A DNA stretch of 45,616 nt, taken from positions 1 through 45,616 of the forward strand of contig CAZEID010000013.1 in the NCBI GenBank assembly GCA_964512075.1, written 5' to 3'. Position numbers and translations under genes: made by a program. The notes beneath the pieces are model-generated. The model ran no database searches, was not told the DNA's origin, and worked only from the letters and a program-made list of their open reading frames with translations. Of this stretch, positions 687 to 29,307 are shown one piece after another. Every line of letters starts with the position of its first letter. Positions within the stretch are counted from its first letter, which is position 1. This DNA is from an uncultured Candidatus Saccharibacteria bacterium. GTDB lineage: Bacteria > Patescibacteriota > WWE3 > 9FT-COMBO-53-11.

Positions 687-1511
687 GTGGCAGTGACGGA
701 AACGGTTATAAGGCCAAAGCGGGGTTTGGCGCTAAATCTCAAAGAAATTTGGGATTGCCGCGAGCTGTTTTACTTTTTGGCTTGGCGGGACATTAAAGTT
801 CGCTACAAACAGACCATCTTCGGAGTCGCTTGGGCGATCCTTCAGCCGTTCATCTTAATGGTGGTTTTTTCCCTTTTCTTCGGGGGAGTAGTGGGGATCT
901 CGGCCGATGGGGTTCCTTACCCCATCTTTTCCTACGCCGGGCTTTTGTTCTGGCAGTTTTTCTCGGGGGCAGTGAGTAAAGTGAGCGGGAGTTTTGTCAG
1001 CAACTCCGGAATTGTGCAGAAGATTTATTTCCCCCGCTTAATCCTTCCTCTCTCCGCGACAGTGGTTTCTCTGGTGGATTTTGTCATGGCGGCGATGGTT
1101 TTTGCGGGACTTTTGGTCTACTACCAATTTGCTCCAACTCCCCTGGGGGTTCTTTTGGTTGTTCCGGCAATTTTAATCACCTTTTTAGCCGCGACCGGGC
1201 TTGGGACTTTTTTAGCAACCCTCAACGTTAAATATCGGGACGTGGGGCACGCTCTGCCATTTTTTATTCAGCTCTTGCTTTTCTTGACGCCGGTGATTTA
1301 CCCGGTTTCGCTGGTGCCGGAGCGATTTCGCTGGCTGATCCAGCTTAACCCGATGGCGGGGGTGATTGATGCGATCCGGGCGAGTTTCTTGGGTCTAGGG
1401 GAGGTGAATTGGGAATCTTTGGGTCTGGCCGCTTTGATTAGCATCGCGCTTTTCGTCTTCGGTTACTTGTATCTGAAGCGGTTTGAGAGCGAGTTTGCCG
1501 ATATAATTTAG
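687..1511 (+). CDS. wzm: ABC-2 type polysaccharide exporter permease (Wzm/TagG-like)
   Basis: 274 aa with about 6 hydrophobic helices and ABC-2 permease sequence character. It is paired with a Wzt-like ATPase downstream. Confidence 0.85.
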   Translation: MAVTETVIRPKRGLALNLKEIWDCRELFYFLAWRDIKVRYKQTIFGVAWAILQPFILMVVFSLFFGGVVGISADGVPYPIFSYAGLLFWQFFSGAVSKVSGSFVSNSGIVQKIYFPRLILPLSATVVSLVDFVMAAMVFAGLLVYYQFAPTPLGVLLVVPAILITFLAATGLGTFLATLNVKYRDVGHALPFFIQLLLFLTPVIYPVSLVPERFRWLIQLNPMAGVIDAIRASFLGLGEVNWESLGLAALISIALFVFGYLYLKRFESEFADII

Positions 1512-1556
1512 GGGAAAAATTCTAATCACTAAACCATAAATTCTAAACAAGCATTA

Positions 1557-1922
1557 ATGGTACAAACTACAAATAACAAACAATACGATTTAGAAGACCG
1601 AACGTTAAAGTTTGCGAGATCGGTTAGGGATTTTGTGAATAAATTGCCAAAAACTGCAGCGAATTTTGAATATGGTAAGCGGCTTCTTAGGTCGAGTGGA
1701 TCTATCGGGGCAAATTACATTGAGGCGAACGAGTCGTTAAGCAAGAAAGATTTTGCGATGAGAGTGAAAATCTGTAAGAAAGAAGCCAAAGAGAGCCGAT
1801 ACTGGTTAAACTTGGTTGATCCGGGAAATGGAGAAGAGTTGGAGAAGGAACAAAACAGTTTGTTTGGCGAAGCGACAGAATCAATGAAAATTTTTGGGAG
1901 CATTTTGGAGGGTTCAAAATAA
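1557..1922 (+). CDS. Four-helix-bundle protein (23S rRNA intervening-sequence protein / Avd-like family)
   Basis: 121 aa with the family pattern RSSGSIGANYIEANESLSKKDF...KICKKEAKESRYWL. Confidence 0.85.
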   Translation: MVQTTNNKQYDLEDRTLKFARSVRDFVNKLPKTAANFEYGKRLLRSSGSIGANYIEANESLSKKDFAMRVKICKKEAKESRYWLNLVDPGNGEELEKEQNSLFGEATESMKIFGSILEGSK

Positions 1923-1973
1923 TGTTTGAAGAATTGGAATTTGGGTTTTGTTTAGAATTTCGAGTTTCGAATT

Positions 1974-1979
1974 TAGAAT
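1974..1979 (+). promoter_or_regulatory. TAGAAT -10 box contributed by the repeat, 10 nt upstream of the wzt ATG
   Basis: atttagaatttg is followed by aagactg and ATG 1990. Confidence 0.35.
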
Positions 1980-1989
1980 TTGAAGACTG

Positions 1990-3231
1990 ATGCTTAAGCC
2001 CGTCATCGAAGTTAAAAATCTATCCAAGGTCTACAAAATTTCGCACGCGCGGAAGCCTTACCATACCCTCCGAGAGGATTTGGTTGAGGCAGCTAAGACA
2101 CCGCTCCGTTTTTTGCGCGGGCACCGGACTGAAAAGGAAGAATTCTGGGCGCTTAAAGATGTCAGCTTCGATGTTAAGCAAGGGGAGGTTCTAGGGATTA
2201 TCGGTAAGAACGGGGCCGGCAAGTCTACTTTACTTAAGATCCTTTCGCGCATCACCAATCCCACTAGTGGAAGTGCCGTCCTCCGGGGGCGAGTCGCTTC
2301 GCTCTTGGAAGTAGGAACAGGTTTCCATCCGGAACTAACCGGGCGGGAGAATATTTATTTGAACGGGGCGCTTTTAGGGATGAGCCGACAGGAGATTACG
2401 CGCAAATTCGACGAGATTGTCGCTTTTGCCGAAGTCGAGAAGTTTTTGGACACTCCGGTTAAGTTTTATTCCTCGGGAATGTATGTCCGGCTGGCGTTCG
2501 CCGTGGCGGCGCATCTGGAGCCGGAGATTTTGATTGTGGATGAGGTTTTAGCGGTGGGGGATGCGCAGTTTCAGAAGAAGTCGTTGGAAAAAATGAGCGA
2601 GATTGCAAGGAGCGGCCGCACAATTCTTTTTGTTAGCCACAACTTGGGTGCTATTCGCCAACTCTGTGGGCGCGCGGTTCTTATGGACGCGGGGAGGGGG
2701 GTAGTGTTCAAAAGCTCAGCGGAAGCTGTAGCGAAGTATCAAACTTTGGGGGTAACTACCTCTCCGAAGGGGAAATACATTTCAGTCGGGGAAAAGGGGC
2801 TCCTCTTTACTGATCTCCATCTTAACGGGGTGGAATTAGCTCGCGAACCGACGGTTCTGTCGGGGGATCCCCTTAAATTCTCATTTCACTACCGTTCCGA
2901 TAAAATAAATCAAGATATCCTGATCGGTTTGAGCATTAAAAGTGCTAGGGATGGCTCTAAATTAATTTTTACTCACAATCAACTCGAATCTGCGAAGCAC
3001 TTAACCGGAGAAAAGGGAAACATCTTTGCTACTTTGTACGTTCCGAAACTCGCGCCGGGTTTGTACAACGTTGAACTTACTGTTTTGGTTGATTCAAATT
3101 ATTACATTCAAGATCTCCCAATTGGATCTTTCCGGGTTGCAGGCGTTCCTTCGTTTCGTTCTAAGCAAACGTTCGATTCCTTTCCTTCCTCCCTCTTAGT
3201 TGATTCAGACTGGAGTTTCGAGGCCGGATGA
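1990..3231 (+). CDS. wzt: Polysaccharide ABC exporter ATP-binding protein with a C-terminal glycan-binding-type extension (Wzt-like)
   Basis: Walker A GKNGAGKST, signature YSSGM and Walker B ILIVDE are present. A beta-rich C-terminal domain of about 160 aa resembles the Wzt C-terminal module. Confidence 0.9.
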   Translation: MLKPVIEVKNLSKVYKISHARKPYHTLREDLVEAAKTPLRFLRGHRTEKEEFWALKDVSFDVKQGEVLGIIGKNGAGKSTLLKILSRITNPTSGSAVLRGRVASLLEVGTGFHPELTGRENIYLNGALLGMSRQEITRKFDEIVAFAEVEKFLDTPVKFYSSGMYVRLAFAVAAHLEPEILIVDEVLAVGDAQFQKKSLEKMSEIARSGRTILFVSHNLGAIRQLCGRAVLMDAGRGVVFKSSAEAVAKYQTLGVTTSPKGKYISVGEKGLLFTDLHLNGVELAREPTVLSGDPLKFSFHYRSDKINQDILIGLSIKSARDGSKLIFTHNQLESAKHLTGEKGNIFATLYVPKLAPGLYNVELTVLVDSNYYIQDLPIGSFRVAGVPSFRSKQTFDSFPSSLLVDSDWSFEAG

Positions 3232-6113
3232 AGATACTGTTAAGTTACAGTCGTTATTTTTTTGATCCAGCCAAAGAGCCAAAGGAGCATAAACATTGGG
3301 GATATTCAGCAAGCATTCTGGCGCGAACCCTTTATCGTCTCCTCTCCGAGATTGGTGATGTCACTTATGTTGATGGTGATAACTTTCAGAGTGTCTCGGG
3401 GCGGGAGTTCGACCTCTTTGTTGGGATCGCGAGCCATTTTTCAGATATCCTCGATGTCTGCAAAGTAAAGAAAAGCATTTTTTGGGCGGTGAATATGCAT
3501 CCTTACGAGAGAAACCGTTTGATTATCGATTTTTATAAGCGGCTTAATCTCCCAAAGGAAGCTCTCGTTGGGTCGGACTTGGTTGATGCTAAAGGAATTT
3601 CTGCTTCGTTGCAGAGAGCAGATTATATCCTCGGTGTTGGAAATGTCGAGACGTACAATTCTTACATCAGGCAAGGTATTCCCAAAAATAAAATTAAGAT
3701 TTTAAACTACGGCGTGGGGAAATTGCCTAAGACAGCCGTCGGTGGATCGATTCCTCCAACTCGCCGCTTTCTCTACGCCTCTTCTGATATCGGTCTTAGG
3801 AAGGGTTTTGATTTAGTTTACGATCTTTTCGTGCGAGCTCAAGAAAGGGGGATTAATTTTCGGTTGGATGTGGTGGGTAATCCTATGAACCCTTTTTACG
3901 AGAGAAAAATAAAAGCCCTTGAAGGTGCGCTAGATGGCAAGATGGTTTACCATGGTTGGGTCAATTCTGCTTCGTCTGCTTACCAGGAGGTTTTCTCTCA
4001 CGCCACCTACCTTGTGTTTCCTTCTCTTGAGGAGGGCCAGGCGGGAACGGTTTTAGACGCTCTCCGGTATGGCGTAATTCCTCTCATTAGCTCCCGGGCT
4101 GGAATTGATTTTTCACCGTTAGGGTTCCTGGAGAGTGAGGTCGATTCGCCGAAAAATCTTGAGATTATCCAACAGGCGGCAAACCTTCCGGATTCTTCTG
4201 TGCGAAATCTTCAGGCGAAGACGCGAAAATATTACAGCGAGTTTCACGAAAGTTTCGAAACCCCGTTGCGAGAAGCACTTTGGGGATGTGTGCGAGATGA
4301 GCTCTATCCCAAGGTGAGTGTGATTATGCCGATTTTTAATAAGGAAAAAACCATTCTTTCCAATCTCCGTTTGCTGGATTCCGCTTGCCGGAGCTACGGT
4401 AACGTTGAAGTGCACATCATCTTTGATGGCTGCACTGATAAGACAGAGAAGATTACCCGGAGTTTTTATCACAGTAGAAATAAGGAAAAATATCCCGTCA
4501 CTTTTGAGGTTACTCCGAACATATTCGAGGTAAAGACTAATAATATTGGATTAAAGAAAGCAACCGGGAAGTACTGTATGATCATTCAGGACGATACTTA
4601 TATTTATGACCGGAATGCTCTTTGGGAATCTGTAATCTTTCTCGAGAGAGATCCTACTTGCGCCATTTTGGGTGGTTTGGCGGGGGTGAACTTTTATCCC
4701 ATCGGTACTCATCTTGCGGGAGAGGGGCAGATTGTGATGAGTGATAACGAAGTCTACTGGCGGCAGGACGGGCGAACCGACCCCTCCCTGAAGAATAAAA
4801 TTTTTGAAGTAGATGCTTGCATGCGGGGGCCCCTCTTCGTTAGAAAAGACTTTTTGGAAGAGCACGGTTACCTGGATGAGGTCTACGCCCCGTTATATCA
4901 GGACGATATGGACTTGTGCTTTCGGGCACGTAAGTTTGGAAAGAAAGTGTACGCGATTCTTCTGGACGTAGAGAATACTTCATTGACTATGAAAAGTTAT
5001 GACTCCCAAAAATCAGCGCGCTTTAGCGAGATTGTTAAGAGAAATACCAAAATTTTTTACGAAAGATGGTCACCATCGACAGTTAAGGACTATCTCTGGG
5101 TTCACAGGACGCCCCTGTTCTCGGGTTGCCGCTATGTTGACTTTGGCTCGATTAGAGCTAAAGTGCATCACGCTTGGTTACGCGCCACTGGTCTATCTCT
5201 CTTTGCTGGTTGGAAGAAGTCTTCGCTGGTGCGATTTCTTGAGTCCGTAGTTGGACGAGTAAAGTCGAAAGCTAGAGAGATTTATTACCGGAAAAGTTTG
5301 CCTCACGAAGTGCATTACGCAGTGAGTACCACAAAGAAAAAAATGTTGCTTAGGAAAGCGCTTAAAGAATCAATCAATTTATTTTTGGGAGTATTTGGCT
5401 TAGAAATCAGGCGGAAACCAGACGTTGAAAAAAGGTTGCCTCCTCCGGCGGTTGCGGAGTCTCAAAAAGAGAAGTGGTTGCGTAAACTAGATATCGGTAC
5501 GGTTATTGATGTTGGGGCGAACGAAGGCCAATTTGCGGCTGAAATCTCGCGCATTATCCCCGGAGTAAGGGTAATCTCATTCGAGCCGTTGGTGGATTGT
5601 TACAAAAAGCTTCTAGAGAACGGAGGTCGGTTTCCAGACTTTAGCGCTTACAATGTCGCTCTCGGGGACCGTAAAGGAAAGGTGAAAATTTATCGTAGTG
5701 AGTTTTCTCCCTCTTCCTCCTTACTTCCCATGGGGGAAACCCACAGGCGAGTGTGGCCCTTTACGGCCAAAACTACACTTGAGGAAGTTAAGATGGCTCG
5801 TCTTGACGACATCATTAAAGATAACGATATCAAGGGCCGACTGTTAATAAAAATTGATGTTCAGGGCGTTGAAGATAAGGTGATAATGGGCGGTAGAAGG
5901 ACCTTCTCCAAAGCTTGTGCGGTGATTATTGAGGTTAGTTTCAAAGAACATCTCTACAAAGGACAGGCTAGTTTTGACCAGGTTTATAAGCTTCTCCGCA
6001 AGTTTGGATTTTCCTACCGGGGGAATTGGTGGCAAGGCGAAGACCCCGACGACGGTGCTCCTCTGCAAGCGAATGCCATTTTTATTAAGGACAGGGAAGT
6101 CGAGTCATGGTGA
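3228..6113 (+). CDS. Tri-domain enzyme: GT4-type glycosyltransferase, GT2-type glycosyltransferase, long linker, FkbM-family methyltransferase
   Basis: The N-terminal GT-B region has SLEEGQAGTVLDALRYGVIPL. The middle GT-A region has VSVIMPIFNKE...IFDGCTDKT...IIQDDTY...QDDMDLCFR. The C-terminal region has VIDVGANEGQFA...NVALGDRKGKVKIY (FkbM pattern). The start overlaps the wzt stop as ATGA. Confidence 0.8.
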   Translation: MKILLSYSRYFFDPAKEPKEHKHWGYSASILARTLYRLLSEIGDVTYVDGDNFQSVSGREFDLFVGIASHFSDILDVCKVKKSIFWAVNMHPYERNRLIIDFYKRLNLPKEALVGSDLVDAKGISASLQRADYILGVGNVETYNSYIRQGIPKNKIKILNYGVGKLPKTAVGGSIPPTRRFLYASSDIGLRKGFDLVYDLFVRAQERGINFRLDVVGNPMNPFYERKIKALEGALDGKMVYHGWVNSASSAYQEVFSHATYLVFPSLEEGQAGTVLDALRYGVIPLISSRAGIDFSPLGFLESEVDSPKNLEIIQQAANLPDSSVRNLQAKTRKYYSEFHESFETPLREALWGCVRDELYPKVSVIMPIFNKEKTILSNLRLLDSACRSYGNVEVHIIFDGCTDKTEKITRSFYHSRNKEKYPVTFEVTPNIFEVKTNNIGLKKATGKYCMIIQDDTYIYDRNALWESVIFLERDPTCAILGGLAGVNFYPIGTHLAGEGQIVMSDNEVYWRQDGRTDPSLKNKIFEVDACMRGPLFVRKDFLEEHGYLDEVYAPLYQDDMDLCFRARKFGKKVYAILLDVENTSLTMKSYDSQKSARFSEIVKRNTKIFYERWSPSTVKDYLWVHRTPLFSGCRYVDFGSIRAKVHHAWLRATGLSLFAGWKKSSLVRFLESVVGRVKSKAREIYYRKSLPHEVHYAVSTTKKKMLLRKALKESINLFLGVFGLEIRRKPDVEKRLPPPAVAESQKEKWLRKLDIGTVIDVGANEGQFAAEISRIIPGVRVISFEPLVDCYKKLLENGGRFPDFSAYNVALGDRKGKVKIYRSEFSPSSSLLPMGETHRRVWPFTAKTTLEEVKMARLDDIIKDNDIKGRLLIKIDVQGVEDKVIMGGRRTFSKACAVIIEVSFKEHLYKGQASFDQVYKLLRKFGFSYRGNWWQGEDPDDGAPLQANAIFIKDREVESW

Positions 6114-9217: not shown

Positions 9218-11407
9218 ATGGTGTTTAAACCCCGAGCAAAAATTGCTAATTACGAGTTACTCCGCAAGCCGAAGGTCTCGGTTGTGATGCCGACTTATAA
9301 TGCTCGGGAGTACCTTCGCGAGGCGATTGAGAGCGTTCTTAACCAGACCTTCAAGGATTTTGAATTTTTGATCATTGACGACGGTTCCACCGATGACACG
9401 GTTGAAATCATCAAAAGCTACCGCGACCCGCGGGTCGTTCTGCACCGCCGCCGCCATCGGGGGCTAGTTTCGGCTTTAAACTACGGTATTAAGGTCGCCC
9501 GGGGGGAGTATATCGCGCGGATGGACGCCGATGATATTTCGGAGCCCCGGCGGTTCGAGCTTCAGGTTGAATTCTTAGACGGCCACCCCGACCACGTTCT
9601 GGTCGGGACTACTACTCAGATTATTGATACCAAGGGACGGACCGTGGAGGTCGCGGCAGAGCCGCTTGGTCACGAAGAGCTCCAGCGGGGTCTGCTGGTA
9701 AGGAATGTTTTGGCCCATGGTTCGGTGATGATGCGAAAAGAGGTTGTGCGCCAAGTTGGCGGGTACGATCCCAAAGCGGTCCACGCCGAAGATTACGATC
9801 TCTGGGCGCGGATCTCCCGGAAGGGGAAGCTAGCAATCCTTCCTTTGCCTCTTTTTAAATGGCGCTTGAATCCGCAGGGGATTTCAGTTACAAAGGCTAA
9901 GGTTCAGCGGCGGACCGTTGAGCGGATTAAAGAGCGCCAGTGGCAGGATTTTCTGCGGAGCGGAAATTCTCTCAAGGTGGATTTCGGCGAAGTTTGGCGA
10001 AGGAGACTGCAGAAGGAGGACCTTTCCGACCCATTTTGGCGCCGCCGCCGCCAAGCGCTGGCGGTGATTTTTTCACGGTTGGGGAGGGAGTTTCTGCTGC
10101 GGGGGAGACGGATAGAAGCGTTTCGGCATATCCTGGCGGCGGTGATTCTTTTTCCCCGTTCTCCCGTCAATTACTTTTATCTTTTGGCGCTTCTTTTCCC
10201 GCGGGGCTTTTTAATTCCGGCGGAAGATTTGCTTCGGCCGCTTAAGCAGTTTCTAGTGCGGATTTGGCACTCCGTTCGGCTAGTTAGTTTCGTCGAGCTT
10301 CCCGAAGGGGGGATTTTGTTTGTTCGGCGGGGAGTTTACCCCGGGTTCGATTTTCCCGAGGCGCACCAGTTCGCGGAGGAGTTGGTGCGGCGGGGAAAGC
10401 GGGTGGGGATCGTATGCCTAAGGAGTCGGGGAGAACCTTCTTACGAAGTGATTAACGGGGTTAAAGTTTTCCGCCTGGCGCCGAACGTTAAGTTTTTCCG
10501 CTGGCTCTTCCAGTTTTTGCTGCTCTTCAATCTTTGGGGAAGGCGTTTTGATGTGGTCCACGTTTTTTGGGGGAAGGGTTTTTCTCTACTACCGATTTTC
10601 GCGCGGCGAGCGGCCCGAAAGTGGGTGTTGGATGTGCGTTCGGGGCATATCGGCGGATTCTTCTCTTCTTTGCTTAACAACGGCTTGGTAGTGGCGGATT
10701 CTTATTTCTTTGATCACGTGATTACTTTGGATGAGCGGCTTTTCCGCAAGCTTTGGCGGAGTTCGCCTAAACCCCGAAATTTACACTTTGTCCCTATGGG
10801 AGTGAACGAAAAAGTTTTTCGTCCCCAGCCGGCGAGAGAGTTAGCCCAAAAGTTGGGAGTTGGTGAAAGTGACTTTGTTTTAGTGTACCAGGGAACTCTG
10901 GATAAATCGCGGCGGTTGGACCAGTTTTTGCGGGGATTCTCTTTTGCCGCGCGCCGGGTCCCCCAGCTCAAGTTTTTGGTGGTGGGGGATGGGTTAAATC
11001 GGGGTCGGCTGGAAGAGGAAGTGCGGCGGCTGGGAATTACTGACAAAGTTATCTTCGTCGGGCGCGTCCCCTACCAAGAGGTTTCCCGTTACGTCTCGGT
11101 CGGAAAGGCGGGGGTTTCTTATGTCCCCCAGACGAAGCCCTTTTTGAACCAGCAAGTAACCAAAACTTTGGAGTATCTCGCCTGCAAGAGGCCGGTACTG
11201 GCGACCCGGCTTCCTTTCCACGAGGATTTGGTGAAGCCCGCTCTCGGAGTGCTAATCAACGACGATTCCCGCTCGGTGGAGCAGGGGATTTTGGAACTAG
11301 TGCGCTTGGAAAGAGAAGGGAAGCTGAAGGTTTCTCGATCCGCCATCAAGGACTTAACTTGGTCGGCGCTGGTGCGCCAGCGGCTTTTGCCAATTTACGA
11401 ATCGTGA
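9218..11407 (+). CDS. Bifunctional GT2 (N-terminal) / GT4 (C-terminal) glycosyltransferase fusion
   Basis: The N-terminal part has VSVVMPTYNAREYL, IIDDGSTDDT and RMDADD. An Arg-rich amphipathic/hydrophobic linker of about 120 aa follows. The C-terminal part is a GT-B fold (VGDGLNRGRLEEE..., TLEYLACKRPVLAT). Confidence 0.85.
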   Translation: MVFKPRAKIANYELLRKPKVSVVMPTYNAREYLREAIESVLNQTFKDFEFLIIDDGSTDDTVEIIKSYRDPRVVLHRRRHRGLVSALNYGIKVARGEYIARMDADDISEPRRFELQVEFLDGHPDHVLVGTTTQIIDTKGRTVEVAAEPLGHEELQRGLLVRNVLAHGSVMMRKEVVRQVGGYDPKAVHAEDYDLWARISRKGKLAILPLPLFKWRLNPQGISVTKAKVQRRTVERIKERQWQDFLRSGNSLKVDFGEVWRRRLQKEDLSDPFWRRRRQALAVIFSRLGREFLLRGRRIEAFRHILAAVILFPRSPVNYFYLLALLFPRGFLIPAEDLLRPLKQFLVRIWHSVRLVSFVELPEGGILFVRRGVYPGFDFPEAHQFAEELVRRGKRVGIVCLRSRGEPSYEVINGVKVFRLAPNVKFFRWLFQFLLLFNLWGRRFDVVHVFWGKGFSLLPIFARRAARKWVLDVRSGHIGGFFSSLLNNGLVVADSYFFDHVITLDERLFRKLWRSSPKPRNLHFVPMGVNEKVFRPQPARELAQKLGVGESDFVLVYQGTLDKSRRLDQFLRGFSFAARRVPQLKFLVVGDGLNRGRLEEEVRRLGITDKVIFVGRVPYQEVSRYVSVGKAGVSYVPQTKPFLNQQVTKTLEYLACKRPVLATRLPFHEDLVKPALGVLINDDSRSVEQGILELVRLEREGKLKVSRSAIKDLTWSALVRQRLLPIYES

Positions 11408-11432: not shown

Positions 11433-14108
11433 ATGCGTTTGCTGCGTGCGGTTAGTAAAAATTTAACTTGGGAACGGGCGGGGGCGGCATCTTTCTTAGT
11501 CTTTCTCCTGCTTACCCCGCTTACTTACAAGATTCAACTCCGGCCGGGCCTTTACCAAGAGGGGATCTATGTTAGCCCCTTGGTACCACTCTTAGCTTTG
11601 AGCGTAGGGCTCTTTTTACGGTCCTTTTGGTGCAAGGAGCGGGAACGGTTTTGGAGAAGGGTCAGGGAATTTTTAGTTCCCCACCCGATCGCAGAATTGT
11701 TTTACATCCTCGTTTTGATTCTCTTATGGTCTTGGGTCTACGGGCTTTTCCTGACGGGAGATTTTGCCGGAGGGGACCTCCTGCGACTGATAAAGTATGG
11801 GCTTTACTTCTTGGTTTTTCCCTTGGCCGTAAGAACTGCTTCGGTTTTGGGGAAGCGGGGAGTCCGGTGGGTCTTGGGGTTGCTTCTCTTAGTTGGGGTG
11901 ATCACTTCGGTAGTTTCACTGGTCCGAATTCATCAATTTGTATCCGCCGGCAATGTAATTGATTTTTGGCAGTACAGTCCCAACTCCCACAGCGTCGGTT
12001 TTTTGGGGCAGTATTTGGACCTTTCGGATTTCAGCGTTGGTCAAATCCCTAAGGCGGCCCACGCCACTTTTGGGCTTTACCTTTCGGCAGTTCTGGCCGT
12101 GGGGTTGGCACTTCTTTCCGAAGCGCGCCGAGGGCTTAGTTCGATTGGCTTGTTTCTAGGGATTGGGACGCTCGTTGCGGCCCTCTTGTACACGCTTTCG
12201 CGGGGAGCGGTTGCCACCGGCGGCTTCGTGGTTGCGGCGGGCTTGTTGGGACTTCTTTTGCGGAGGCGCTTGGGGACGGCGCTGGGGCTGGGGCTTTTTT
12301 TGGTTTTAGAGACGGCAACCCTCCTTCAACTTAATCCTGAAGTTTCCCAGAAGTTCGCTTCCACTTTTCCGGGAGCAGAGAAGCTAGGGGAGCAGGTGGT
12401 CGCGCTTTCGGCCCCGGTGGGGCGAGGGGTTTTGAGTGCCCTCTCCCTCCTTAAGGATTCTCCGGGCGCTTTCCAGGCTTCGCCGCTCCCGCCGGAACCG
12501 GTTGCCGCCTCTAAAGTTGAGGAGTATTCCGCTCCCGCGCTCCCTTTTGATAAGTCTTTTAACGATCGGGTGGTGACGTGGGAGAACCTCTGGGCGCTTT
12601 TGCGCTCCCGCCCTTCATTTTTTGTTTTGGGGGTCGGGTACAGCATTGATAACCTGGCTCATTTTACGGGCGGTACGGTAGTCTATCCCCACAGCCTGTT
12701 ATTGGATATGTGGGTCCGCGGGGGGCTTTTATCCCTGGCGTTGGTTTTGGCCGTTTGGCTGCTGCTTTTCCTTAAGGTGGTCCAGTTTATCCTCTCGAAA
12801 GATAAATTAGTAAACGCCTTTGGTTTTGCCGTTTTTGGATTTTTGGCGGGATGGTTTCTAGACAACGCCTTATCCGGAGAACAGTTTTTCTCGGATGCGC
12901 CGATGTTGGCGTTTTGGGGAACGTTTGGGTTCGTCGCGGCACTGGCCCAATTGGAAAGTAAGAAGTCTAAAGTAAAAAAAGTTTTAATCGCGCTGACGAG
13001 TTCCGGAATAGGGGGCGCGCCGAAAGTCGTCTACGACTTCCTTAGCAACCAATTAGAAGTTAATAGTAAACAGCGGGAAAGAAGAGAGTTTGAATTTATC
13101 GTCGCCGGACCGCCGGGAAGATTCCTGCGGGAGTTCAAGAAGCTTGGTTACAAAGTTTATTTGGCTCCGCTCGGCCAAATTGGGATCGGGGGGTTTATGC
13201 GGCTTCTCAAAATCTCCCGCCGAGAGGGGGTTGATCTAATTAACTCCCACGGCAAGGGGGCGGGGCTTTACGCCCGGTTAGTCGGGGCGGTTTTGGGCGT
13301 TCCAGTAGTGCACACTTTTCACGGGATTCATTACTTTCGGTATGGGAAAGTTACCCGCTGGATCTACTTCAACTTCGAGCGGCTGATGTCGCAGTTTACG
13401 CGGCTGGTCATCAACGTCTCGGCCAGTCAGCAGAAAGAGGGGGTCGGGCTGAAGCTCTTCCCCCGGGAGAAGGCGCGGGTAGTGGAGAACGGGATGAGGG
13501 TTTCCTCGGTTAAGCTTGCCAAAAAGGAGAGGCGAAAGATTCGTGAGAGGTGGGGAATCGGCGAAAAGGACTTTATGGCGGTAGTTTTGGCGCGGTTTGA
13601 TCCCATCAAAGGCCACGCCCGGCTGGTGGAGATTCTCCCAGTGATTTTGGCGAAAGTCCCCCGATTAAAAGTGGTTTTGGTCGGAGACGGGGAAGAGGAA
13701 GACAAGATTAAAAGGTTGGTGCAGGAGCTGGGGGTTTCCAACGCGGTAGTTTTTGCCGGCCGGCAGAACGATCCTTTCCAGATTTTAAGTTCCGCCGAGG
13801 TCCTGCTTCATCCTTCCTACCATGAGGGTTTACCGCTATCCCCGCTGGAAGCCTCCGCTTTGGCGGTGCCGGTCGTGGCAGCTCAAGCGGTAGGAAACGC
13901 CGATACAGTTTTAAACGGCAAAACCGGATACCTGGTGGACTTTCAGGAGGCGGGAGAGGTTGCGGCCGCGTTGAAGCGGTTGTCCCGGTCGGCGACCCTC
14001 CGCCGCCGAATGGGGGAGCGGGGGAGAAGGTGGGTTACAGAAAGATTCTCGATGGAAAAGTTTGTGAAAAAAACGCTGGCGGTCTACCGAGAAGCCCTCA
14101 AAAATTAA
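11433..14108 (+). CDS. O-antigen ligase/polymerase-like (Wzy_C) polytopic membrane domain fused to a C-terminal GT4 glycosyltransferase
   Basis: The N-terminal ~510 aa contain many TM helices, the Wzy_C-type motifs LSRGAVATGG and YPHSLLLDMWVRGGLLSLAL, and a Pro/Ser-rich extracytoplasmic loop. The C-terminal region has HPSYHEGLPLSPLEASALAVPVVA (GT4). Confidence 0.8.
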   Translation: MRLLRAVSKNLTWERAGAASFLVFLLLTPLTYKIQLRPGLYQEGIYVSPLVPLLALSVGLFLRSFWCKERERFWRRVREFLVPHPIAELFYILVLILLWSWVYGLFLTGDFAGGDLLRLIKYGLYFLVFPLAVRTASVLGKRGVRWVLGLLLLVGVITSVVSLVRIHQFVSAGNVIDFWQYSPNSHSVGFLGQYLDLSDFSVGQIPKAAHATFGLYLSAVLAVGLALLSEARRGLSSIGLFLGIGTLVAALLYTLSRGAVATGGFVVAAGLLGLLLRRRLGTALGLGLFLVLETATLLQLNPEVSQKFASTFPGAEKLGEQVVALSAPVGRGVLSALSLLKDSPGAFQASPLPPEPVAASKVEEYSAPALPFDKSFNDRVVTWENLWALLRSRPSFFVLGVGYSIDNLAHFTGGTVVYPHSLLLDMWVRGGLLSLALVLAVWLLLFLKVVQFILSKDKLVNAFGFAVFGFLAGWFLDNALSGEQFFSDAPMLAFWGTFGFVAALAQLESKKSKVKKVLIALTSSGIGGAPKVVYDFLSNQLEVNSKQRERREFEFIVAGPPGRFLREFKKLGYKVYLAPLGQIGIGGFMRLLKISRREGVDLINSHGKGAGLYARLVGAVLGVPVVHTFHGIHYFRYGKVTRWIYFNFERLMSQFTRLVINVSASQQKEGVGLKLFPREKARVVENGMRVSSVKLAKKERRKIRERWGIGEKDFMAVVLARFDPIKGHARLVEILPVILAKVPRLKVVLVGDGEEEDKIKRLVQELGVSNAVVFAGRQNDPFQILSSAEVLLHPSYHEGLPLSPLEASALAVPVVAAQAVGNADTVLNGKTGYLVDFQEAGEVAAALKRLSRSATLRRRMGERGRRWVTERFSMEKFVKKTLAVYREALKN

Positions 14109-14123
14109 CCGGGTAACCTTTTG

Positions 14124-14147
14124 TTATAGTATACTAATATACTATAA
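14124..14147. promoter_or_regulatory. A/T-rich 10-bp inverted repeat (ttatagtata-ctaa-tatactataa); operator or weak terminator
   Basis: The perfect inverted repeat is read directly from the sequence. It lies in the 97-nt gap between two glycan genes. Confidence 0.4.
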
Positions 14148-14187
14148 ACTTTTATTGGTTTAAGCTTTCCTTTTTAATCTTCCCACT

Positions 14188-14196
14188 TGGTAGAAT
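14188..14196 (+). promoter_or_regulatory. Extended -10 (TGgTAGAAT) 9 nt upstream of ATG 14206
   Basis: tggtagaat + taatccgat + ATG. Confidence 0.4.
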
Positions 14197-14205
14197 TAAT
14201 CCGAT

Positions 14206-15345
14206 ATGCGCATTGGTATTGACGCCCGCCTTTGGGGTTCTTCTGGTCGGGGGGTAGGGCGGTACGTCCAGAATTTGGTTGAAAATCTTGAGAAGGTCGA
14301 CTCCAAGAATAAGTACTTTATTTTCCTGAGAGAAAAGGGCTTTAATACCTTTCTTCCTCACGGTGAAAACTTTCACAAGGTTTTGGCGGATGTCCCCTGG
14401 TACGGGGTGCAGGAGCAAGTAGTGATGCCAGGGATTTTTTCGGCCTCAAACCTCGATCTTTTGCATGTTCCTCACTTCAACGCCCCACTTCTGTACGGAG
14501 AAAGAATGGTCGTAACTATTCATGATTTGACAATGCTCAAGTTTGGCGGGAGAGAAACTTCTACTCTCCCCGCCCCGCTTTTTTACGCCAAGCGGCTCGG
14601 GTTGCGGGTGGTGACGGAATTGGCTGTCCGCCGCGCCGCGCGAGTGATCGTGCCGTCTAAATTTGTGAAGAAAGAGTTAGTAAGGACTTTTACGCTTCCC
14701 CCCGGGAAGATTGTTGTAACTCCCGAGGCGGGAGTTCTGGCAGGGAAGGAAAGGACTGCGGCGGAACGGGAGATTGAAGATGTGTTGGGAAAGTACCGAA
14801 TTACCAAGCCCTACTTTCTCTACGTGGGATCTTTTTATCCTCACAAGAATGTGGGGCGGTTGGTGGAGGCGGTTAAGGTTCTGAACGAGAGATTGAAAAA
14901 ATCCGCCCAACTAGTGTTGGTAGGAGGGAAAGATGCTTTCTTGGAAAGGGTTGCGCACCAGGCGCTAGAGATTGGGGCTTTGAAGTATTTGGTTTTGACT
15001 GGTTATGTGACCGATGCTGACTTGGTTGACCTTTACCGGGAAGCCGAGGCTTACGTTCAGCCCTCGCTGTCGGAGGGCTTTGGCCTAGGCTCGGTTGAAG
15101 CGATGGCGTTGGGAGTACCGGTAGTGCAGTCTGAAGCTTCCTGCCTGCCGGAGATTGCCGGCGAAGCCGCGCTGTACTTTGATCCCCAAAATCCCCGGGA
15201 TATTGCCGAAAAATTAGCCAAGGTACTAGGAAACAAGACACTGCGGCAAGGATTAGTGAAGAAGGGTTTGGCCCGAGCAAAGGACTTCTCCTGGGAAAAG
15301 ATGGCGCGAGAAACGCTGGGAGTTTACCGGAAGGCCGCAAGATGA
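14206..15345 (+). CDS. GT4-family glycosyltransferase
   Basis: VQPSLSEGFGLGSVEAMALGVPVV is present, with an N-terminal MRIGIDAR... GT-B fold. Confidence 0.85.
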   Translation: MRIGIDARLWGSSGRGVGRYVQNLVENLEKVDSKNKYFIFLREKGFNTFLPHGENFHKVLADVPWYGVQEQVVMPGIFSASNLDLLHVPHFNAPLLYGERMVVTIHDLTMLKFGGRETSTLPAPLFYAKRLGLRVVTELAVRRAARVIVPSKFVKKELVRTFTLPPGKIVVTPEAGVLAGKERTAAEREIEDVLGKYRITKPYFLYVGSFYPHKNVGRLVEAVKVLNERLKKSAQLVLVGGKDAFLERVAHQALEIGALKYLVLTGYVTDADLVDLYREAEAYVQPSLSEGFGLGSVEAMALGVPVVQSEASCLPEIAGEAALYFDPQNPRDIAEKLAKVLGNKTLRQGLVKKGLARAKDFSWEKMARETLGVYRKAAR

Positions 15346-17499: not shown

Positions 17500-18186
17500 G
17501 TGACGGATATGCCTAAGTTGCCCCGCGACATTTTTTACTTTTCCGCGAAGCGTTTAATTGACGTTTTGGGAGGAGCTTTCGGGCTCCTATTTTTTAGCCC
17601 GATGATGCTGGCGATTTGGGTGGCACGAAAGGCCGAGGGGGCTAAGAATGTGATTTTTGCCCAGCCCCGGGTGGGGCAACACGGGAAGGTCTTCCGCTTC
17701 TACAAATTTTCTTCCATGACGACTACTACCGCCGAAGAGGAGCGGGAATTTTTCATTCAGCTGGAGAAGAACGACCCCCGTTTGTTGGAGGCGTACCGGC
17801 GCAACAATTTCAAATTTGAGGAAGGGAAAGATCCCCGAATTACCAAAGTTGGTCGAATTATTCGCCGCTTCAGCATTGACGAGCTTCCCCAGTTTTTTAA
17901 CGTTCTCAAGGGAGAGATGTCTTTGGTTGGCCCTCGGGCTTATAAGCCGGATGAGCTGGAGTACAAGCTGAAAGAGTATCCCCAAAGTAAGAAGGATGTG
18001 GAAATGCTTTTAAAGGTTAAGCCGGGAATCACCGGGGTTTGGCAGGTTTCCGGCCGCGCGGAGATTGACTTTCCTCAGCGGGCAAAGCTGGACGCCGATT
18101 ACGCCCGCCGCCGCTCTCTTTGGGAGGATTTCAAAATTATTTTGAGGACTCCCGTCGCCATGATCGTCGGGAAAGGAGCTTATTAA
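17500..18186 (+). CDS. Polyprenyl-phosphate glycosyl-1-phosphate transferase (small monotopic 'bacterial sugar transferase', PglC/WbaP C-terminal type)
   Basis: An N-terminal re-entrant helix is followed by DELPQFFNVLKGEMSLVGPRA and KPGITGVWQVSGR. The start is GTG 17500 or ATG 17509. Confidence 0.85.
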   Translation: MTDMPKLPRDIFYFSAKRLIDVLGGAFGLLFFSPMMLAIWVARKAEGAKNVIFAQPRVGQHGKVFRFYKFSSMTTTTAEEEREFFIQLEKNDPRLLEAYRRNNFKFEEGKDPRITKVGRIIRRFSIDELPQFFNVLKGEMSLVGPRAYKPDELEYKLKEYPQSKKDVEMLLKVKPGITGVWQVSGRAEIDFPQRAKLDADYARRRSLWEDFKIILRTPVAMIVGKGAY

Positions 18187-18251: not shown

Positions 18252-20270
18252 ATGGAGCTTTTGAAAGATCTTCGGTTGCCGCCGCTCTCTCCTCACATCC
18301 CTTCCGCCCCGGGAAAGAAAAGAAGGAAGAAAGCGAAGAGAGGGCGCCCGAAAATTAAGCTGGTTCTCCTATCGATGTTCCTCTTTCTGTTGCTCCTCTT
18401 CCTGCTGTTGGGGGTCCTTCCTTTGGCTTTGCTCTACCCTTCGGCGAGAAGTCTAAATTCGGCGGTCGGGGTTCTGAAGGGCGCAATTGGTGACCGCGAT
18501 TTGGCGGCGATCGGATCGGCCGTGGTGGCGGCGGCCGAGGATTTCGACCAGCTGGAAGGGAATTATCGCCGGTTGGCATACTTCCGACTCGTTCCGGTGG
18601 TCCGCCACTATTACGAGGACGGAGTCCATCTTCTTGCCGCCGGCCGGTTGTTGTTGGATTCCATCGGGATGGTGGGGGAGGCGATTAGACCCTACGAGGA
18701 AATTTTGGGATGGAAAGTTGGTTTTGGGCAGCAGATCACGGTAGAACAGCAGTTGGGAAATTTGGTTGACACTCTTCCGAATTTGGCAGATGGGCTCGAT
18801 GCCGTTTGGAAAAATATCGGTCAGATTCAGAACGAGCTTGATCAGGTTAACCCCCAAAGGTACCCGGAGGAGGTGCGGGGGGTAAAGGTGCGGTTTTGGT
18901 TGGAGGAAGCCCGCAATATTCTAGCGGAGACCGCGCCCCTTGTCTCCCGGGGGCGGGAAGTATTGGAAGTGGCCCCCGCGCTGCTTGGTTCACCGAAACG
19001 AACCTATCTGGTTCTTTTCCAGAATGGGGCGGAATTGCGGGCGACCGGGGGGTTTATTACGGGTTTTTCCCTTTTGACGGTCGAGGGGGGGCGGGTTTTG
19101 GACAATCAATTTCACAGCGGGGCTTATTTTGCGGAGCACTACTCGCCGGAGTTGGGTTCCCCACCCCGGCCGCTGGGAAAGTACTTAGGCGTTGGAAAGT
19201 GGCACTTCCAAGACGCTAATTACTGGCCCGATTTTCCGACCACAGCGGAGGGAATCCTAGCGGTGTGGCGGAAGTCCGGCTTACCGAAGGTCGCGGGGGT
19301 GGTGGCAATTAACACCGAGATTGCGGCCGATCTGTTGGATTTGACGGGGCCGATTCGCATCCGCGGCTACGATCTGGATTTGGCGAATATTAATCTTCCG
19401 GAAGACTGCCGCAAAGGCGGGCGGGATTTTACAGCTGAAAACTTGATCTGTCGGCTAGAGTACTACGTCGAGAAAGCCCCCCGGGGCGGGAAAGGGACCG
19501 AGGCCCGCAAGGCGATCTTGGGCTTGATCTCGGATGCGATTATCAAAAAGGTTTCCCACTCTTCGGCCGAAATCTGGCCGAAGCTAGTTGATTTTGTTTT
19601 CAAGCACTTGGCGGAAAAGAATCTCCTCGTTTACGCGGCGACTCCCAGAGAGCAAGATCTTCTCCGAAGCCTTGGATACACTGGGGAGCTGAAGGAGTAC
19701 GCCGGTGATTATCTCCACATTAGCGACAGCAACTTCGGCGGGTTGAAAACCAACCTTTATCTGCAGATGGAGGTGAGGCAATCGTTAGAGAGAGGAAAGG
19801 AGGGAATTTGGCGGAAAACCGTCCGAATCAAGTACTACAACCCGGCGCCATACGATGGTTGGCTCTCGGGGTATTACAAGGATTTTGTCCGAATTTATGT
19901 TCCTTTAGGTTCTCGGTTGGTTTCAGTTGACGGGGCTCTCCAAATTTGGACGCGTAAAGATTCTTGGGCGGTGACAGTTCAAAACCCCGCTGGTTGGGAA
20001 GAGAACGGCAAGACGGTTTTTGGAGCTTACTTCACCGTCGCTCCTCAAAGAGAGCAGGTGCTGACATTTGTTTATGATCTTCCCGCGGGAGTAGTAAGCG
20101 AGGACGAGGACGACGCCTCTGGCGTTCTAGCTTCCCGCGGGAAGTATCGGCTTCTTCTCCAGAAGCAGCCGGGGACAAATATAGGTCTTGTGGTGGTTAA
20201 GATTGGTGATACGATGGAATCGTTCGGACTAGGGACGGATCGCGAAGTAGTAATTTCGCTCCGCGAATAA
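18252..20270 (+). CDS. DUF4012-domain membrane-anchored protein
   Basis: A basic N-terminus and one TM helix are followed by the hallmark YLVLFQNGAELRATGGFITGF. Confidence 0.75.
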   Translation: MELLKDLRLPPLSPHIPSAPGKKRRKKAKRGRPKIKLVLLSMFLFLLLLFLLLGVLPLALLYPSARSLNSAVGVLKGAIGDRDLAAIGSAVVAAAEDFDQLEGNYRRLAYFRLVPVVRHYYEDGVHLLAAGRLLLDSIGMVGEAIRPYEEILGWKVGFGQQITVEQQLGNLVDTLPNLADGLDAVWKNIGQIQNELDQVNPQRYPEEVRGVKVRFWLEEARNILAETAPLVSRGREVLEVAPALLGSPKRTYLVLFQNGAELRATGGFITGFSLLTVEGGRVLDNQFHSGAYFAEHYSPELGSPPRPLGKYLGVGKWHFQDANYWPDFPTTAEGILAVWRKSGLPKVAGVVAINTEIAADLLDLTGPIRIRGYDLDLANINLPEDCRKGGRDFTAENLICRLEYYVEKAPRGGKGTEARKAILGLISDAIIKKVSHSSAEIWPKLVDFVFKHLAEKNLLVYAATPREQDLLRSLGYTGELKEYAGDYLHISDSNFGGLKTNLYLQMEVRQSLERGKEGIWRKTVRIKYYNPAPYDGWLSGYYKDFVRIYVPLGSRLVSVDGALQIWTRKDSWAVTVQNPAGWEENGKTVFGAYFTVAPQREQVLTFVYDLPAGVVSEDEDDASGVLASRGKYRLLLQKQPGTNIGLVVVKIGDTMESFGLGTDREVVISLRE

Positions 20271-20307: not shown

Positions 20308-21069
20308 ATGTCGACCTACCGAGAAGAAGGAATTGTCATCCGCAAAAAAGATTTTGGTGAGGCCGATAAGATTCTCACGCTTTACACCCGCGACCGCGGC
20401 CGGGTAACAGCTTTCGCTCCCGGAGCTCGAAAAGTTACCTCTCGTAAGGCTTCGGCGACGGAACTTTTCACCCACGGCGTCTATTTTTTCTCCGAAGGGA
20501 AGAATATGGATGTGATTACCGAAAGCGAAGTGTTAAATTCCTTCTACCCGTTGCGGGACGATTTGCCGAAGGCCGCGCTTGCCTTTTACTTGGCCGAGCT
20601 GTTGGATTTCCTTCTTCCCGAAGGTCAGCCGAACTACCCGGTCTACCGGCTTTTCCTGGAGTCGGTTTCGCTCCTCTCCCGGGCTAAGCGCCGGCACGAG
20701 CTTTGGGTTCGGGCCTTTGAGATTAAAGCGCTTTCTCAGCTCGGCTACGGCCCGGAGCTTTTTCAATGCGCTCATTGTACGGCTCCTCTTTCAGCCGAAA
20801 AATATTTTCAAGCTCCGTCGGGGGGAACGGTTTGCCGCGATTGTTTTGAAGATGGAATTCTTCTTAACGAGGAGCAATTGTTGTTTCTTCGGGACTTATC
20901 ACGCTTAAATTGGAACGAACTTTCCCGCCTGCGGTTTGAGGATCACCACCTTTACGACGCCGAGAAGATTCTCGGCTACTATCTGCGAGAGGTTTTGGAG
21001 AAGGAGCTTTCCACTGCCGATTTTGTGCGAAAGGCCCGGCAGGAGCTGGCGACGATTGGAACCGCCTGA
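20308..21069 (+). CDS. recO: DNA repair protein RecO
   Basis: The N-terminal OB-fold pattern is EGIVIRKKDFGEADKILTLYTRDRGRV. The C-terminal region has a CxxC...CxxC zinc motif (CAHC...CRDC). Confidence 0.9.
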   Translation: MSTYREEGIVIRKKDFGEADKILTLYTRDRGRVTAFAPGARKVTSRKASATELFTHGVYFFSEGKNMDVITESEVLNSFYPLRDDLPKAALAFYLAELLDFLLPEGQPNYPVYRLFLESVSLLSRAKRRHELWVRAFEIKALSQLGYGPELFQCAHCTAPLSAEKYFQAPSGGTVCRDCFEDGILLNEEQLLFLRDLSRLNWNELSRLRFEDHHLYDAEKILGYYLREVLEKELSTADFVRKARQELATIGTA

Positions 21070-21078
21070 GGTTACTTC

Positions 21079-21087
21079 TGTTATTCT
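21079..21087 (+). promoter_or_regulatory. Extended -10 (TGtTATTCT) 7 nt upstream of the glyQS ATG
   Basis: tgttattct + attctca + ATG 21095. Confidence 0.35.
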
Positions 21088-21094
21088 ATTCTCA

Positions 21095-22396: not shown

Positions 22397-22460
22397 ATAA
22401 ATCTAGTTGGTGTGTGTTTGGCGGTCGGGATTTTGGGGCGTGTTTGCTATCAGGGGGAAA

Positions 22461-22493
22461 TTGACTTCCAACTTTAATTATTTAAATAATTAA
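22461..22493 (+). promoter_or_regulatory. Putative promoter (TTGACT) overlapped by a perfect 20-bp palindrome, upstream of the TrpR-like gene
   Basis: ttgact lies at 22461-22466. The palindrome ttaattatttaaataattaa spans 22474-22493 and ends 5 nt before the ATG. Confidence 0.45.
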
Positions 22494-22498
22494 AAACA

Positions 22499-22906
22499 AT
22501 GGCACAGGTTTCTAAGAGAACAATGAAACCAGAGATCAAAAAGCAGATTTATGAGTTGTTTTGGGATTCTCTGGCGAAGCTGAAAAACGCCCAAGAAGCG
22601 GAGAAGTTTTATCTCGATCTTTTGACCTACACCGAAAAGGTAGTATTGGCGAAGAGATGGGCGATTGCGGTGCTATTGCTCCGGGGATTGGGCTACAGTG
22701 AGATAAAAGAATTACTTAAAGTGAGCGATCCTACCATTACCAGGGTTCGGAATCAACTTCGGGCCGGTGGCGGGTTCTTGCTTGTCGCCGAGAGATTATC
22801 GCGGCAGGAGTTTTGGCGGCAGTTCGCTAAAGGATTCGAAAAGCCGAACTCGGTATATCCTCGGCAGAGAAAGAGTTACCTCAAGTTTCCTTTTGGGGCC
22901 CCTTGA
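22499..22906 (+). CDS. TrpR-related YerC/YecD-family DNA-binding protein
   Basis: 135 aa. LLTYTEKVVLAKRWAIAVLLLRGLGYSEIKELLKVSDPTITRV matches the TrpR/YerC helix-turn-helix layout. Confidence 0.75.
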   Translation: MAQVSKRTMKPEIKKQIYELFWDSLAKLKNAQEAEKFYLDLLTYTEKVVLAKRWAIAVLLLRGLGYSEIKELLKVSDPTITRVRNQLRAGGGFLLVAERLSRQEFWRQFAKGFEKPNSVYPRQRKSYLKFPFGAP

Positions 22907-22964
22907 CTTTTGATTTAAGAATGCACTAGAGTGGTGATTAGTGGTTACCAGTCCCTAAGTGTGG
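22903..22964 (+). promoter_or_regulatory. Putative Pmra promoter plus MraZ-box array (GTGG repeats at 10-nt phase)
   Basis: ttgact (22903) + 18 nt + tagagt (22927). GTGG then occurs at 22931, 22941 and 22961, with a degenerate GTCC at 22951, giving exact 10-nt periodicity. Confidence 0.5.
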
Positions 22965-23039
22965 GGAAGGAACCCCGGTTTTACGCTCGTTTTGGGGAAA
23001 AGTGCCGAAGCGAGTGGAGCCTGCCCTTTAACAAAGATC

Positions 23040-23456: not shown

Positions 23457-23476
23457 CTATTTTTGCTTGTGACCGA

Positions 23477-26379: not shown

Positions 26380-26462
26380 CCCTTTGGGATTGGGTCTGAA
26401 TTGTTCAATCCGCGAAGCTCTTCCAAAATTTCTGGAATTCTTTTCTTCCGGGGCGCTTTAGG

Positions 26463-26471
26463 TGCTAGAAT
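26463..26471 (+). promoter_or_regulatory. Extended -10 (TGcTAGAAT) 9 nt upstream of the murA GTG
   Basis: tgctagaat + ctagtctca + GTG 26481. Confidence 0.4.
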
Positions 26472-26480
26472 CTAGTCTCA

Positions 26481-28408: not shown

Positions 28409-28475
28409 CAATTTTTTGCTCCGGTCTCTCGAGTTCTCGCGGCGCGAGGAATGACCTACTTTCAACCCCTCTTTC

Positions 28476-29297: not shown

Positions 29298-29307
29298 CCT
29301 GAAAGTA

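Follow-up and report, generated by a model that had tools for sequence, protein, structure and literature searches.

A WaaL-like membrane domain fused to a cytoplasmic GT4 glycosyltransferase in probable surface-glycan gene clusters of Patescibacteria

What use could a bacterium with no sign of lipid A make of an enzyme resembling an O-antigen ligase, and why would it carry that enzyme on the same polypeptide as a glycosyltransferase of the opposite membrane face? The question is raised by a gene at positions 11433..14108 of a 45,616-nucleotide contig (CAZEID010000013.1, assembly GCA_964512075.1) from an uncultured Candidatus Saccharibacteria bacterium; this whole stretch is called the window hereafter, and its features lie on the forward (+) strand unless stated otherwise. 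An earlier description made from the letters alone (the sequence-only reading) had proposed an in-frame fusion of a WaaL/PglL/Wzy_C-type membrane domain with a glycosyltransferase (GT) of family GT4. Its four quoted motifs (4/4) are all present in the translation of 11433..14108, and the single-frame architecture has been borne out as a conserved one. With rather better than even confidence, judged from sequences and models, we read the gene as encoding an enzyme that works on both membrane faces when a bacterium of the Candidate Phyla Radiation (CPR)/Patescibacteria assembles a surface glycan; the membrane half of the enzyme would act as a ligase or oligosaccharyltransferase (OTase).

The open reading frame (ORF), taken from the ORF list and its translation, encodes 891 amino acids plus a stop with no internal stop codon, an AGGAG Shine-Dalgarno sequence lies 5 nt upstream of its ATG, and its orthologues measure 814-886 aa. 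The product consists of a membrane domain (residues 1-508; 11433..12956), a seven-residue basic linker, SKKSKVK, predicted to be cytoplasmic (509-515; 12957..12977), and a GT4 domain (516-891; 12978..14105). The alignment preserves the linker as a basic stretch, and the standalone relatives P0005 and P0007 terminate at about this point. In public records the orthologues are named only “glycosyltransferase”, and the target itself is called as a 736-aa protein (P0027) starting at about residue 156, which removes transmembrane helices (TM) 1-5. The 891-aa form is favored over that start because residues 1-155 are conserved in homologues and because of the AGGAG site.

The fusion is genuine and conserved. 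An exhaustive HMMER search of residues 1-520 against 1.84 billion representative proteins returned 24 matches at E ≤ 1e-3, four of them fused, and among the homologues of the membrane domain with lengths of 490-1560 aa, 17 of 18 carry a GT4 (one being the target's own protein in its shorter public call), the sole member without it being a 492-aa standalone form. A survey of 185,579 species genomes yielded six loci, all of them fused; they come from Saccharibacteria, Parcubacteria (two contigs, one metagenome-assembled genome, MAG), WWE3, Sungbacteria and an unclassified Patescibacteria MAG, and every named source of the fusion belongs to the CPR/Patescibacteria. Among 19 metagenome loci (genome and metagenome loci are numbered with the prefix L), 17 are in frame across the junction, and the remaining two (L013 and L015) give no information; of the 17, 12 have a complete fused frame, 831-902 aa long, frameshifts in the N-terminal part of L012 and L027 leave the junction in frame, and the contigs of L018, L021 and L024 end 57-266 aa beyond it. 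To judge from equal frame lengths, L011/L001, L014/L005 and L023/L004 are probably duplicates. A query spanning the junction (residues 370-700) gave stop-free matches in three of nine genomes of the same family versus none of 31 genomes from other families of the class at E ≤ 1e-10, so that the distribution is patchy. The 24 best matches of the GT4 half, moreover, all belong to the fused family (48-59% identity, the next dropping to 29%), and both halves therefore evolved together as one gene.

One contig of sequencing run X1, which may be where this DNA came from, extends over 12415-14200 with no indel. In X2, an independent run, contigs match the gene at ≥99% identity and leave 12948-13004 unbridged; no RNA run is listed for the stretch. 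A stop codon or frameshift at the junction, which the sequence-only reading had named as evidence that would speak against it, is seen in none of the informative orthologous loci, and the X1 contig bridges the junction cleanly; the survey of related genomes that it had proposed yielded the six of six and 17 of 19 loci given above.

To which family does the membrane half belong? Wzy_C (PF04932) is the sole Pfam match of the N-terminal 520 residues, at 23.2 bits when they are scanned alone and 27.4 bits in the genome scan, both below the gathering cut-off of 31.7; these sub-threshold matches (E 6e-5 and 6e-7) span profile positions 5-148/149. NCBIfam offered no family for the domain at E up to 10, and the single sequence gave only chance matches among PDB sequences (E > 0.8). 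Since the target sequence itself is sub-threshold, the assignment leans on orthologues, profile and fold. Within the 24 representative matches, Wzy_C is found at E ≤ 0.01 in 17 and above the cut-off in 14; relatives P0003 (67% identical), P0006 and P0007 score 48.3, 52 and 59 bits, and in L002, L004 and L005 the same region of the fused ORF reaches 54.7-62.5 bits. The lower score of the target may be due to a Pro/Ser-rich insertion of the large outside loop (residues 342-373; 12456..12551), which is modeled with a predicted local distance difference test (pLDDT) value below 50, varies in length and falls opposite gaps in most homologues.

A profile of the membrane domain that included the standalone relatives matched a single PDB entry, the WaaL of Cupriavidus metallidurans (CmWaaL; 7TPG), at E 1.9e-6. 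The AlphaFold model of residues 1-520 (pLDDT 87.7, predicted TM-score 0.86) likewise retrieved WaaL as its only Foldseek match at E ≤ 1e-3 (3.6e-6), and VIA-align superposed model residues 11-507 on 7TPG with Z 24.9 and a root-mean-square deviation of 5.0 Å over 358 of 403 residues, the next-best folds being FtsW (Z 16.1) and RodA (about 14). These sequence and model data support a WaaL/PglL-type (Wzy_C, GT-C) domain, as the sequence-only reading had called it, although on the strength of orthologues, profile and fold rather than of the target sequence alone.

The topology rests on the helices of the model (assigned by DSSP), hydropathy and the positive-inside rule. Twelve TM helices are recognized in residues 1-508, and lysines plus arginines make up 21 of 61 residues in the short inside loops versus 4 of 79 in the outside ones. 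The predicted arrangement places both termini of the membrane domain, that is, the N-terminus and the C-terminal end of TM12, in the cytoplasm together with the GT4, while R257, a 131-residue loop holding R379 and H420, and a further loop with the block SGEQFFSDAPM would face outwards.

How far does the active site follow that of WaaL? Pairing with CmWaaL was counted along the HMMER alignment. R257, in the motif LSRGA of the outside loop TM7-TM8 (12201..12203), aligns with Arg-191, is invariant in 18 fused homologues and is at least 90% conserved in 28 sequences. The large outside loop TM9-TM10 (residues 301-431; 12333..12725), delimited by its invariant residues and the secondary structure of the model, conserves D373, S375, R379, W383, GVGY400-403, N407, H420, S421, D425 and R429. 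Of these, R379 (12567..12569) aligns with Arg-265 and is invariant in our alignments A1, A3 and A4, and H420, in the motif YPHSLL (12690..12692), aligns with His-313 and is invariant in the 18 fused homologues; P0015 and P0023, which are standalone and distant relatives, have Glu instead. According to the CAZy work (PMC10920833), Arg-191 and Arg-265 bind the phosphates of undecaprenyl diphosphate (Und-PP), and His-313 is the proposed activator of the acceptor. The outside loop TM11-TM12 carries the SGEQFFSDAPM block (residues 481-491; 12873..12905), which does not vary among the fused homologues and includes E483, 63 residues past H420; CmWaaL has no Glu at the aligned place. Altogether, R257, R379, H420 and about 30 more outside-facing residues are invariant in 18 homologues at 42-58% identity, and loop charges and alignment place the conserved Arg/Arg/His set on the outer face.

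The other half poses fewer problems. Pfam recognizes both of its lobes, Glyco_transf_4 with 53.7 bits (residues 555-688 of the fused protein) and Glycos_transf_1 (PF00534) with 127.7 bits against a cut-off of 26.4 (residues 700-867), and its model alternates strands and helices across residues 515-890. E798-x7-E806 (13824..13850) is invariant in the 18 fused homologues and corresponds to EX7E, which we take to be the motif of retaining GT4 enzymes; equally invariant are R721 and K726, presumably the basic residues for nucleotide-sugar phosphates. The nearest solved sequences are BshA (2jjm; 2.7e-41) and PglA (8dvz; 6.8e-34), with the lipid-acting PimA and PimB' also among the solved GT4 relatives, and the ESM Atlas structure rows give TM-scores of 0.79-0.91 as normalized to standalone GT4 models. 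GT4 enzymes use nucleotide sugars, which are cytoplasmic, and an inside location therefore agrees with the predicted topology. The claim of a complete, cytoplasmic GT4 of the GT-B type thus stood, given the Pfam coverage of both halves of the transferase and the tally of charged residues.

What could such a two-sided enzyme do? In the mechanism that we propose, the membrane domain would take a finished, Und-PP-linked glycan on the outer face and move it en bloc to an acceptor outside, which would make it a ligase or O-oligosaccharyltransferase rather than a polymerase of repeat units. Inside, the GT4 may extend a lipid-linked intermediate of this pathway by one sugar, drawn from a nucleotide sugar, beside the neighboring GT4s and a PglC-like initiator, and the fusion would keep this transferase matched to, and co-located with, the lipid-linked glycan that is handled later. 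Lipid A-core cannot be the acceptor, since a search for LpxC (PF03331) found no match in the assembled genome (515,200 bp, 90.7% complete, over which all family searches were run), and a LytR-CpsA-Psr (LCP) ligase is available for wall attachment; the likeliest acceptor is therefore a membrane glycolipid or a protein. The sequence-only reading had spoken of coupling a late cytoplasmic step to extracytoplasmic transfer; the physical tie of an inside to an outside transferase holds, whereas “late” is not supported, as the step could equally be an early, second-sugar one or one that builds the acceptor.

The surroundings of the gene fit an assembly line of this kind. On the same strand, the cluster opens with an ABC-2 permease (687-1511) and an ABC ATPase (1990-3231), both recognized by Pfam, which form the cluster head (687..3231). 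They are followed directly by a 961-aa protein (3228-6113) with a GT4-type domain (residues 175-292), a GT2 (364-479) and an FkbM methyltransferase (761-930), then by a GT2, a GT4, a GT11 and, directly upstream of the fused gene, a 729-aa GT2-GT4 fusion (9218-11407), the conserved counterpart of which in the syntenic locus L001 (7792-9990) encodes 732 aa. The 961-aa protein looks like the chain-extending and terminating enzyme of an ABC-transporter-dependent pathway, and no second ABC-2 permease was found in the assembled genome. From the fused gene onwards come a 379-aa GT4 (14206..15345; Pfam), an epimerase, another GT4, a small initiating phosphoglycosyl transferase of the Bac_transf family (PglC-like, 228 aa; 17500..18186), the only Bac_transf found in the assembled genome, and a 672-aa DUF4012 protein (18252-20270), which ends the glycan cluster as it does in L001 (16631-18673).

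This order is largely preserved elsewhere. The core shared across loci comprises an upstream GT4-like gene, the fusion, the 379-aa GT4, a further GT4 or epimerase and the small Bac_transf; the 379-aa GT4 lies directly 3' of the fusion in L001, L002, L003, L006, L016, L019, L020, L022, L028 and L029, and the Bac_transf is kept downstream in L016, L019 and L029 and, by size and position only, in L001. The exporter beside the fusion varies: ABC-2 in the window, a Wzx-type flippase in L002, L005, L016, L022 and L025, and a PglK/MsbA-type ABC protein in L004. The only Wzx-like gene of the window lies 30 kb from the cluster. The cluster of L020 holds an extra standalone Wzy_C together with a second, larger Bac_transf, and Pfam scans of the clusters found no Wzz/polysaccharide co-polymerase (PCP) family.

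Some further features of these loci may be recorded here. The ABC ATPase of the window has a C-terminal extension of about 220 residues without a Pfam family. In L004 (9106-16849, WWE3), a PAPS (3'-phosphoadenosine 5'-phosphosulfate) synthase composed of ATP-sulfurylase and APS (adenosine 5'-phosphosulfate) kinase, the PglK/MsbA-type ABC exporter and three sulfotransferases follow the fusion, a gene set which suggests a sulfated glycan. Right after the glycan cluster of the window, positions 20308-35949 contain RecO, a class-II aminoacyl-tRNA synthetase and a compact division and cell wall (dcw) cluster with MraZ, RsmH, a penicillin-binding protein, a MurA-like gene of the EPSP-synthase family, MraY, FtsW, MurG, FtsQ, FtsA and FtsZ; the opposite strand carries, at 27821-29297, a sigma factor and an unassigned gene of 273 aa.

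The fused gene has relatives within its own genome, where the family searches counted four Wzy_C proteins, one LCP ligase, one Bac_transf, two MraY/WecA-type proteins, one ABC-2 permease and two MOP flippases. One Wzy_C paralogue of 709 aa (contig C10 of the assembly, G000; L007:736-2865, + strand) is itself a fusion, with Wzy_C at 56.3 bits and a C-terminal WecG/TagA (GT26) domain at 170.9 bits (residues 521-691); it carries His at the key position, aligns with the target at 17% identity and adjoins a divergent gene for a PEGA-domain protein. A second one (G000:C6; L008:3-1376), the N-terminus of which is cut by the contig start, bears C-terminal TPR repeats, and a third, standalone one of 426 aa (G000:C20; L009:781-2061) is flanked by a DnaA-like gene on one side and a Pro-rich solute-binding protein on the other. 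For a genome of 0.5 Mb, four Wzy_C genes are many.

On which side of the transfer, that of the donor or that of the acceptor, does the GT4 work? The alternative that survives best, though an unlikely one in our view, is a sub-case of the ligase reading in which the GT4 has another role: as in Brucella WadA, it would sugar a membrane lipid acceptor inside, such as a glycolipid anchor, onto which the Wzy_C domain would ligate the exported polymer after flipping, giving an LPS-like lipoglycan in an LPS-less cell. WadA, the only characterized fusion of a ligase with a GT, works in this way, and coupled action of bimodular O-ligases is suggested by the CAZy authors (PMC10920833). The lipid-acting PimA and PimB' among the solved GT4 relatives would also suit it, as would the seven-residue tether, which keeps the GT4 at the membrane surface. 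However, the conserved operon with its PglC-like initiator and further GT4s looks like a single Und-PP-linked assembly line, and the cluster holds one Bac_transf initiator only. The characterized members of the WecG/TagA family act on Und-PP-linked sugars (Und-PP-GlcNAc), which puts the GT of the sister fusion on the donor side. We thus weakly favor a GT4 acting on the Und-PP-linked intermediate rather than on the acceptor, because of the operon with the initiator and further GT4s, the presence of PglA among the nearest solved relatives, and the TagA/WecG-type GT, acting on Und-PP-GlcNAc, of the sister fusion.

Less probable again is that the membrane domain polymerizes flipped Und-PP-linked repeat units in the manner of Wzy, with the GT4 completing the unit in the cytoplasm, and here it is the acceptor-activating residue, the type of export and the company of other genes that have to be weighed. 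As stated in the CAZy work, O-ligases of clan GT-C1 carry a His at this position, and SEDS and most polymerase families an Asp or Glu, GT127 being an exception (PMC10920833). The fused family has an invariant His where the Wzy-type polymerases (BP-Pol families, GT-C1) would be expected to show Asp/Glu, and the ligase or OTase is favored over a polymerase for this reason. It is further favored because the cluster of the window, with its ABC-2 exporter, is of the ABC-transporter type, a pathway that builds its polymer in the cytoplasm and needs no Wzy polymerase, and because the same orthologue accompanies three different export routes, which fits WaaL, a pathway-agnostic enzyme. The extra standalone Wzy_C of L020 and the absence of a Wzz/PCP family from the Pfam scans of the clusters also speak against a polymerase.

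Several points nonetheless weigh against the ligase or OTase. Pfam Wzy_C takes in Wzy polymerases as well, and the fold search produced no solved Wzy or PglL match for comparison, so that the likeness to the WaaL fold leaves both in play; the SEDS polymerases FtsW and RodA, moreover, are the next-best folds. The extra Wzy_C of L020 also has His at the key position, which makes this residue non-discriminating within our set. The loci with a Wzx-like flippase in the cluster show no other Wzy_C in the 6-10 kb fetched, as would be expected if the fusion were their polymerase. Finally, an hhalign comparison of a four-sequence profile of the N-terminal domain was non-significant both with WaaL of Escherichia coli K-12 (E 0.13, probability 0.45) and with the E. 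coli Wzy, WbbH (E 0.4).

A bolder extension of the priming idea, which we put forward as a speculation with the chances clearly against it, is that LPS-less CPR bacteria build an LPS-like, lipid-anchored “core plus polymer” glycoconjugate: the fused GT4 would make the acceptor sugar on a membrane glycolipid, the WaaL-like domain would ligate the exported polymer to it, and the four Wzy_C paralogues (two with a fused GT) would form a “prime-and-ligate” family decorating the host-attachment surface. That the membrane half has no catalytic activity and serves merely as an anchor or scaffold for the GT4, as the sub-threshold Pfam score of the target might hint, is very improbable in view of the invariance of R257, R379, H420 and their outside-facing companions and of the orthologues that pass the Wzy_C cut-off. 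An assembly or sequencing artefact that merged two neighboring genes through a frameshift or a lost stop, conceivable for a MAG and for a junction without an X2 contig, is hardly credible next to the recurrence of the fusion, at 36-63% identity, in several CPR lineages that were assembled independently, an X1 contig that crosses the junction without indels and a linker conserved as a basic stretch.

The ligase or OTase reading can now be set against the systems that are known. The closest solved one is WaaL of C. metallidurans (7TPG/7TPJ; CAZy family GT121), with which the target shares the 12-TM GT-C fold, the long outside loop before TM10, the aligned Arg/Arg/His and, presumably, an Und-PP-linked donor. 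The two differ in that their identity is only 14%, the target alone has a 376-aa C-terminal cytoplasmic GT4, and the invariant SGEQFFSDAPM outside loop of the fused family has no counterpart in WaaL. Furthermore, the acceptor of WaaL is lipid A-core, whereas the host of the target gave no match to LpxC, which makes the enzyme ligase-like but not an O-antigen:lipid A-core ligase.

The protein-glycosylating enzymes PglL and PglS offer a second comparison. They are membrane enzymes of the Wzy_C/RfaL type that use arginines to engage the pyrophosphate and a His for catalysis; downstream of this His lies a functionally important Glu, E404 in PglL and E379 in PglS (PMC12800693). The genes that accompany the fusion resemble pgl loci in combining a small initiator of the Bac_transf family with several GT4s and, as flippase, a Wzx or a PglK-like protein, and the GT4 half of the target counts PglA among its closest solved relatives. 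PglS, in contrast to the target with its cytoplasmic GT4, has no notable cytoplasmic features (PMC12800693).

Nearer at hand, the Wzy_C-GT26 paralogue of the same genome has the same layout, in that its N-terminal Wzy_C bears the key His and is followed by a cytoplasmic GT at the C-terminus, but differs in the GT family (GT26, not GT4), in sequence (17% identity) and in neighborhood. Among feature-similar clusters of the ESM Atlas, which have 55-182 members, some combine O-antigen_lig or Wzy_C with GT4, most commonly in Bacillota and Bacteroidota; others join Wzy_C with Glyco_tran_28_C, Wzy_C with GT9 (Pseudomonadota) and O-antigen_lig with WecG, and one of 55 members has the same architecture as the GT26 paralogue. 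These rows, which come without alignments, hint as an unconfirmed lead that pairings of ligase-type domains with GT4, GT28, GT9 and WecG are common in other phyla. A search with the GT4 half among proteins of 490-1560 aa left other fused families unconfirmed, as the eight non-family matches scanned are tandem GT4-GT4 proteins.

WaaL-like ligases are understood almost wholly through LPS; the fusion provides a compact, conserved, single-polypeptide case in ultra-small bacteria of the episymbiont type. Four such enzymes in a genome of about 0.5 Mb suggest that surface glycans matter greatly to these cells. Since the fusion links both steps, the substrate of the GT4 would point directly to the glycan or acceptor that the ligase handles.

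The sequence-only reading knew of no characterized example of this fusion, a statement that proves too broad. Servais et al. (2023; PMC9938171) describe Brucella WadA as an N-terminal cytoplasmic GT joined to a C-terminal 12-TM O-antigen ligase, and name it the first bifunctional O-antigen ligase; its GT adds the last glucose of the core, to which its ligase attaches the O-antigen. In the CAZy work, WadA is a GT25 appended to GT121 and is found in five genera (PMC10920833). In the literature searched, which leaves most subscription journals outside, neither a ligase fused to a GT4 nor any ligase of Patescibacteria was found to be treated, and within it the GT4 partner, the reversed order of domains and the LPS-less host have no characterized example. 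Both proteins combine a ligase domain with a soluble GT in the cytoplasm, and both are accompanied by an export route of the Wzm/Wzt type. Compared by layout, the GT of WadA is N-terminal and of family GT25, while that of the target is C-terminal and of family GT4 (GT-B); and the acceptor of WadA is the core glucose of LPS, while the host of the target lacks LPS. The gene described here thus extends the two-sided design of WadA to another GT family, to the opposite domain order and to an LPS-less phylum.

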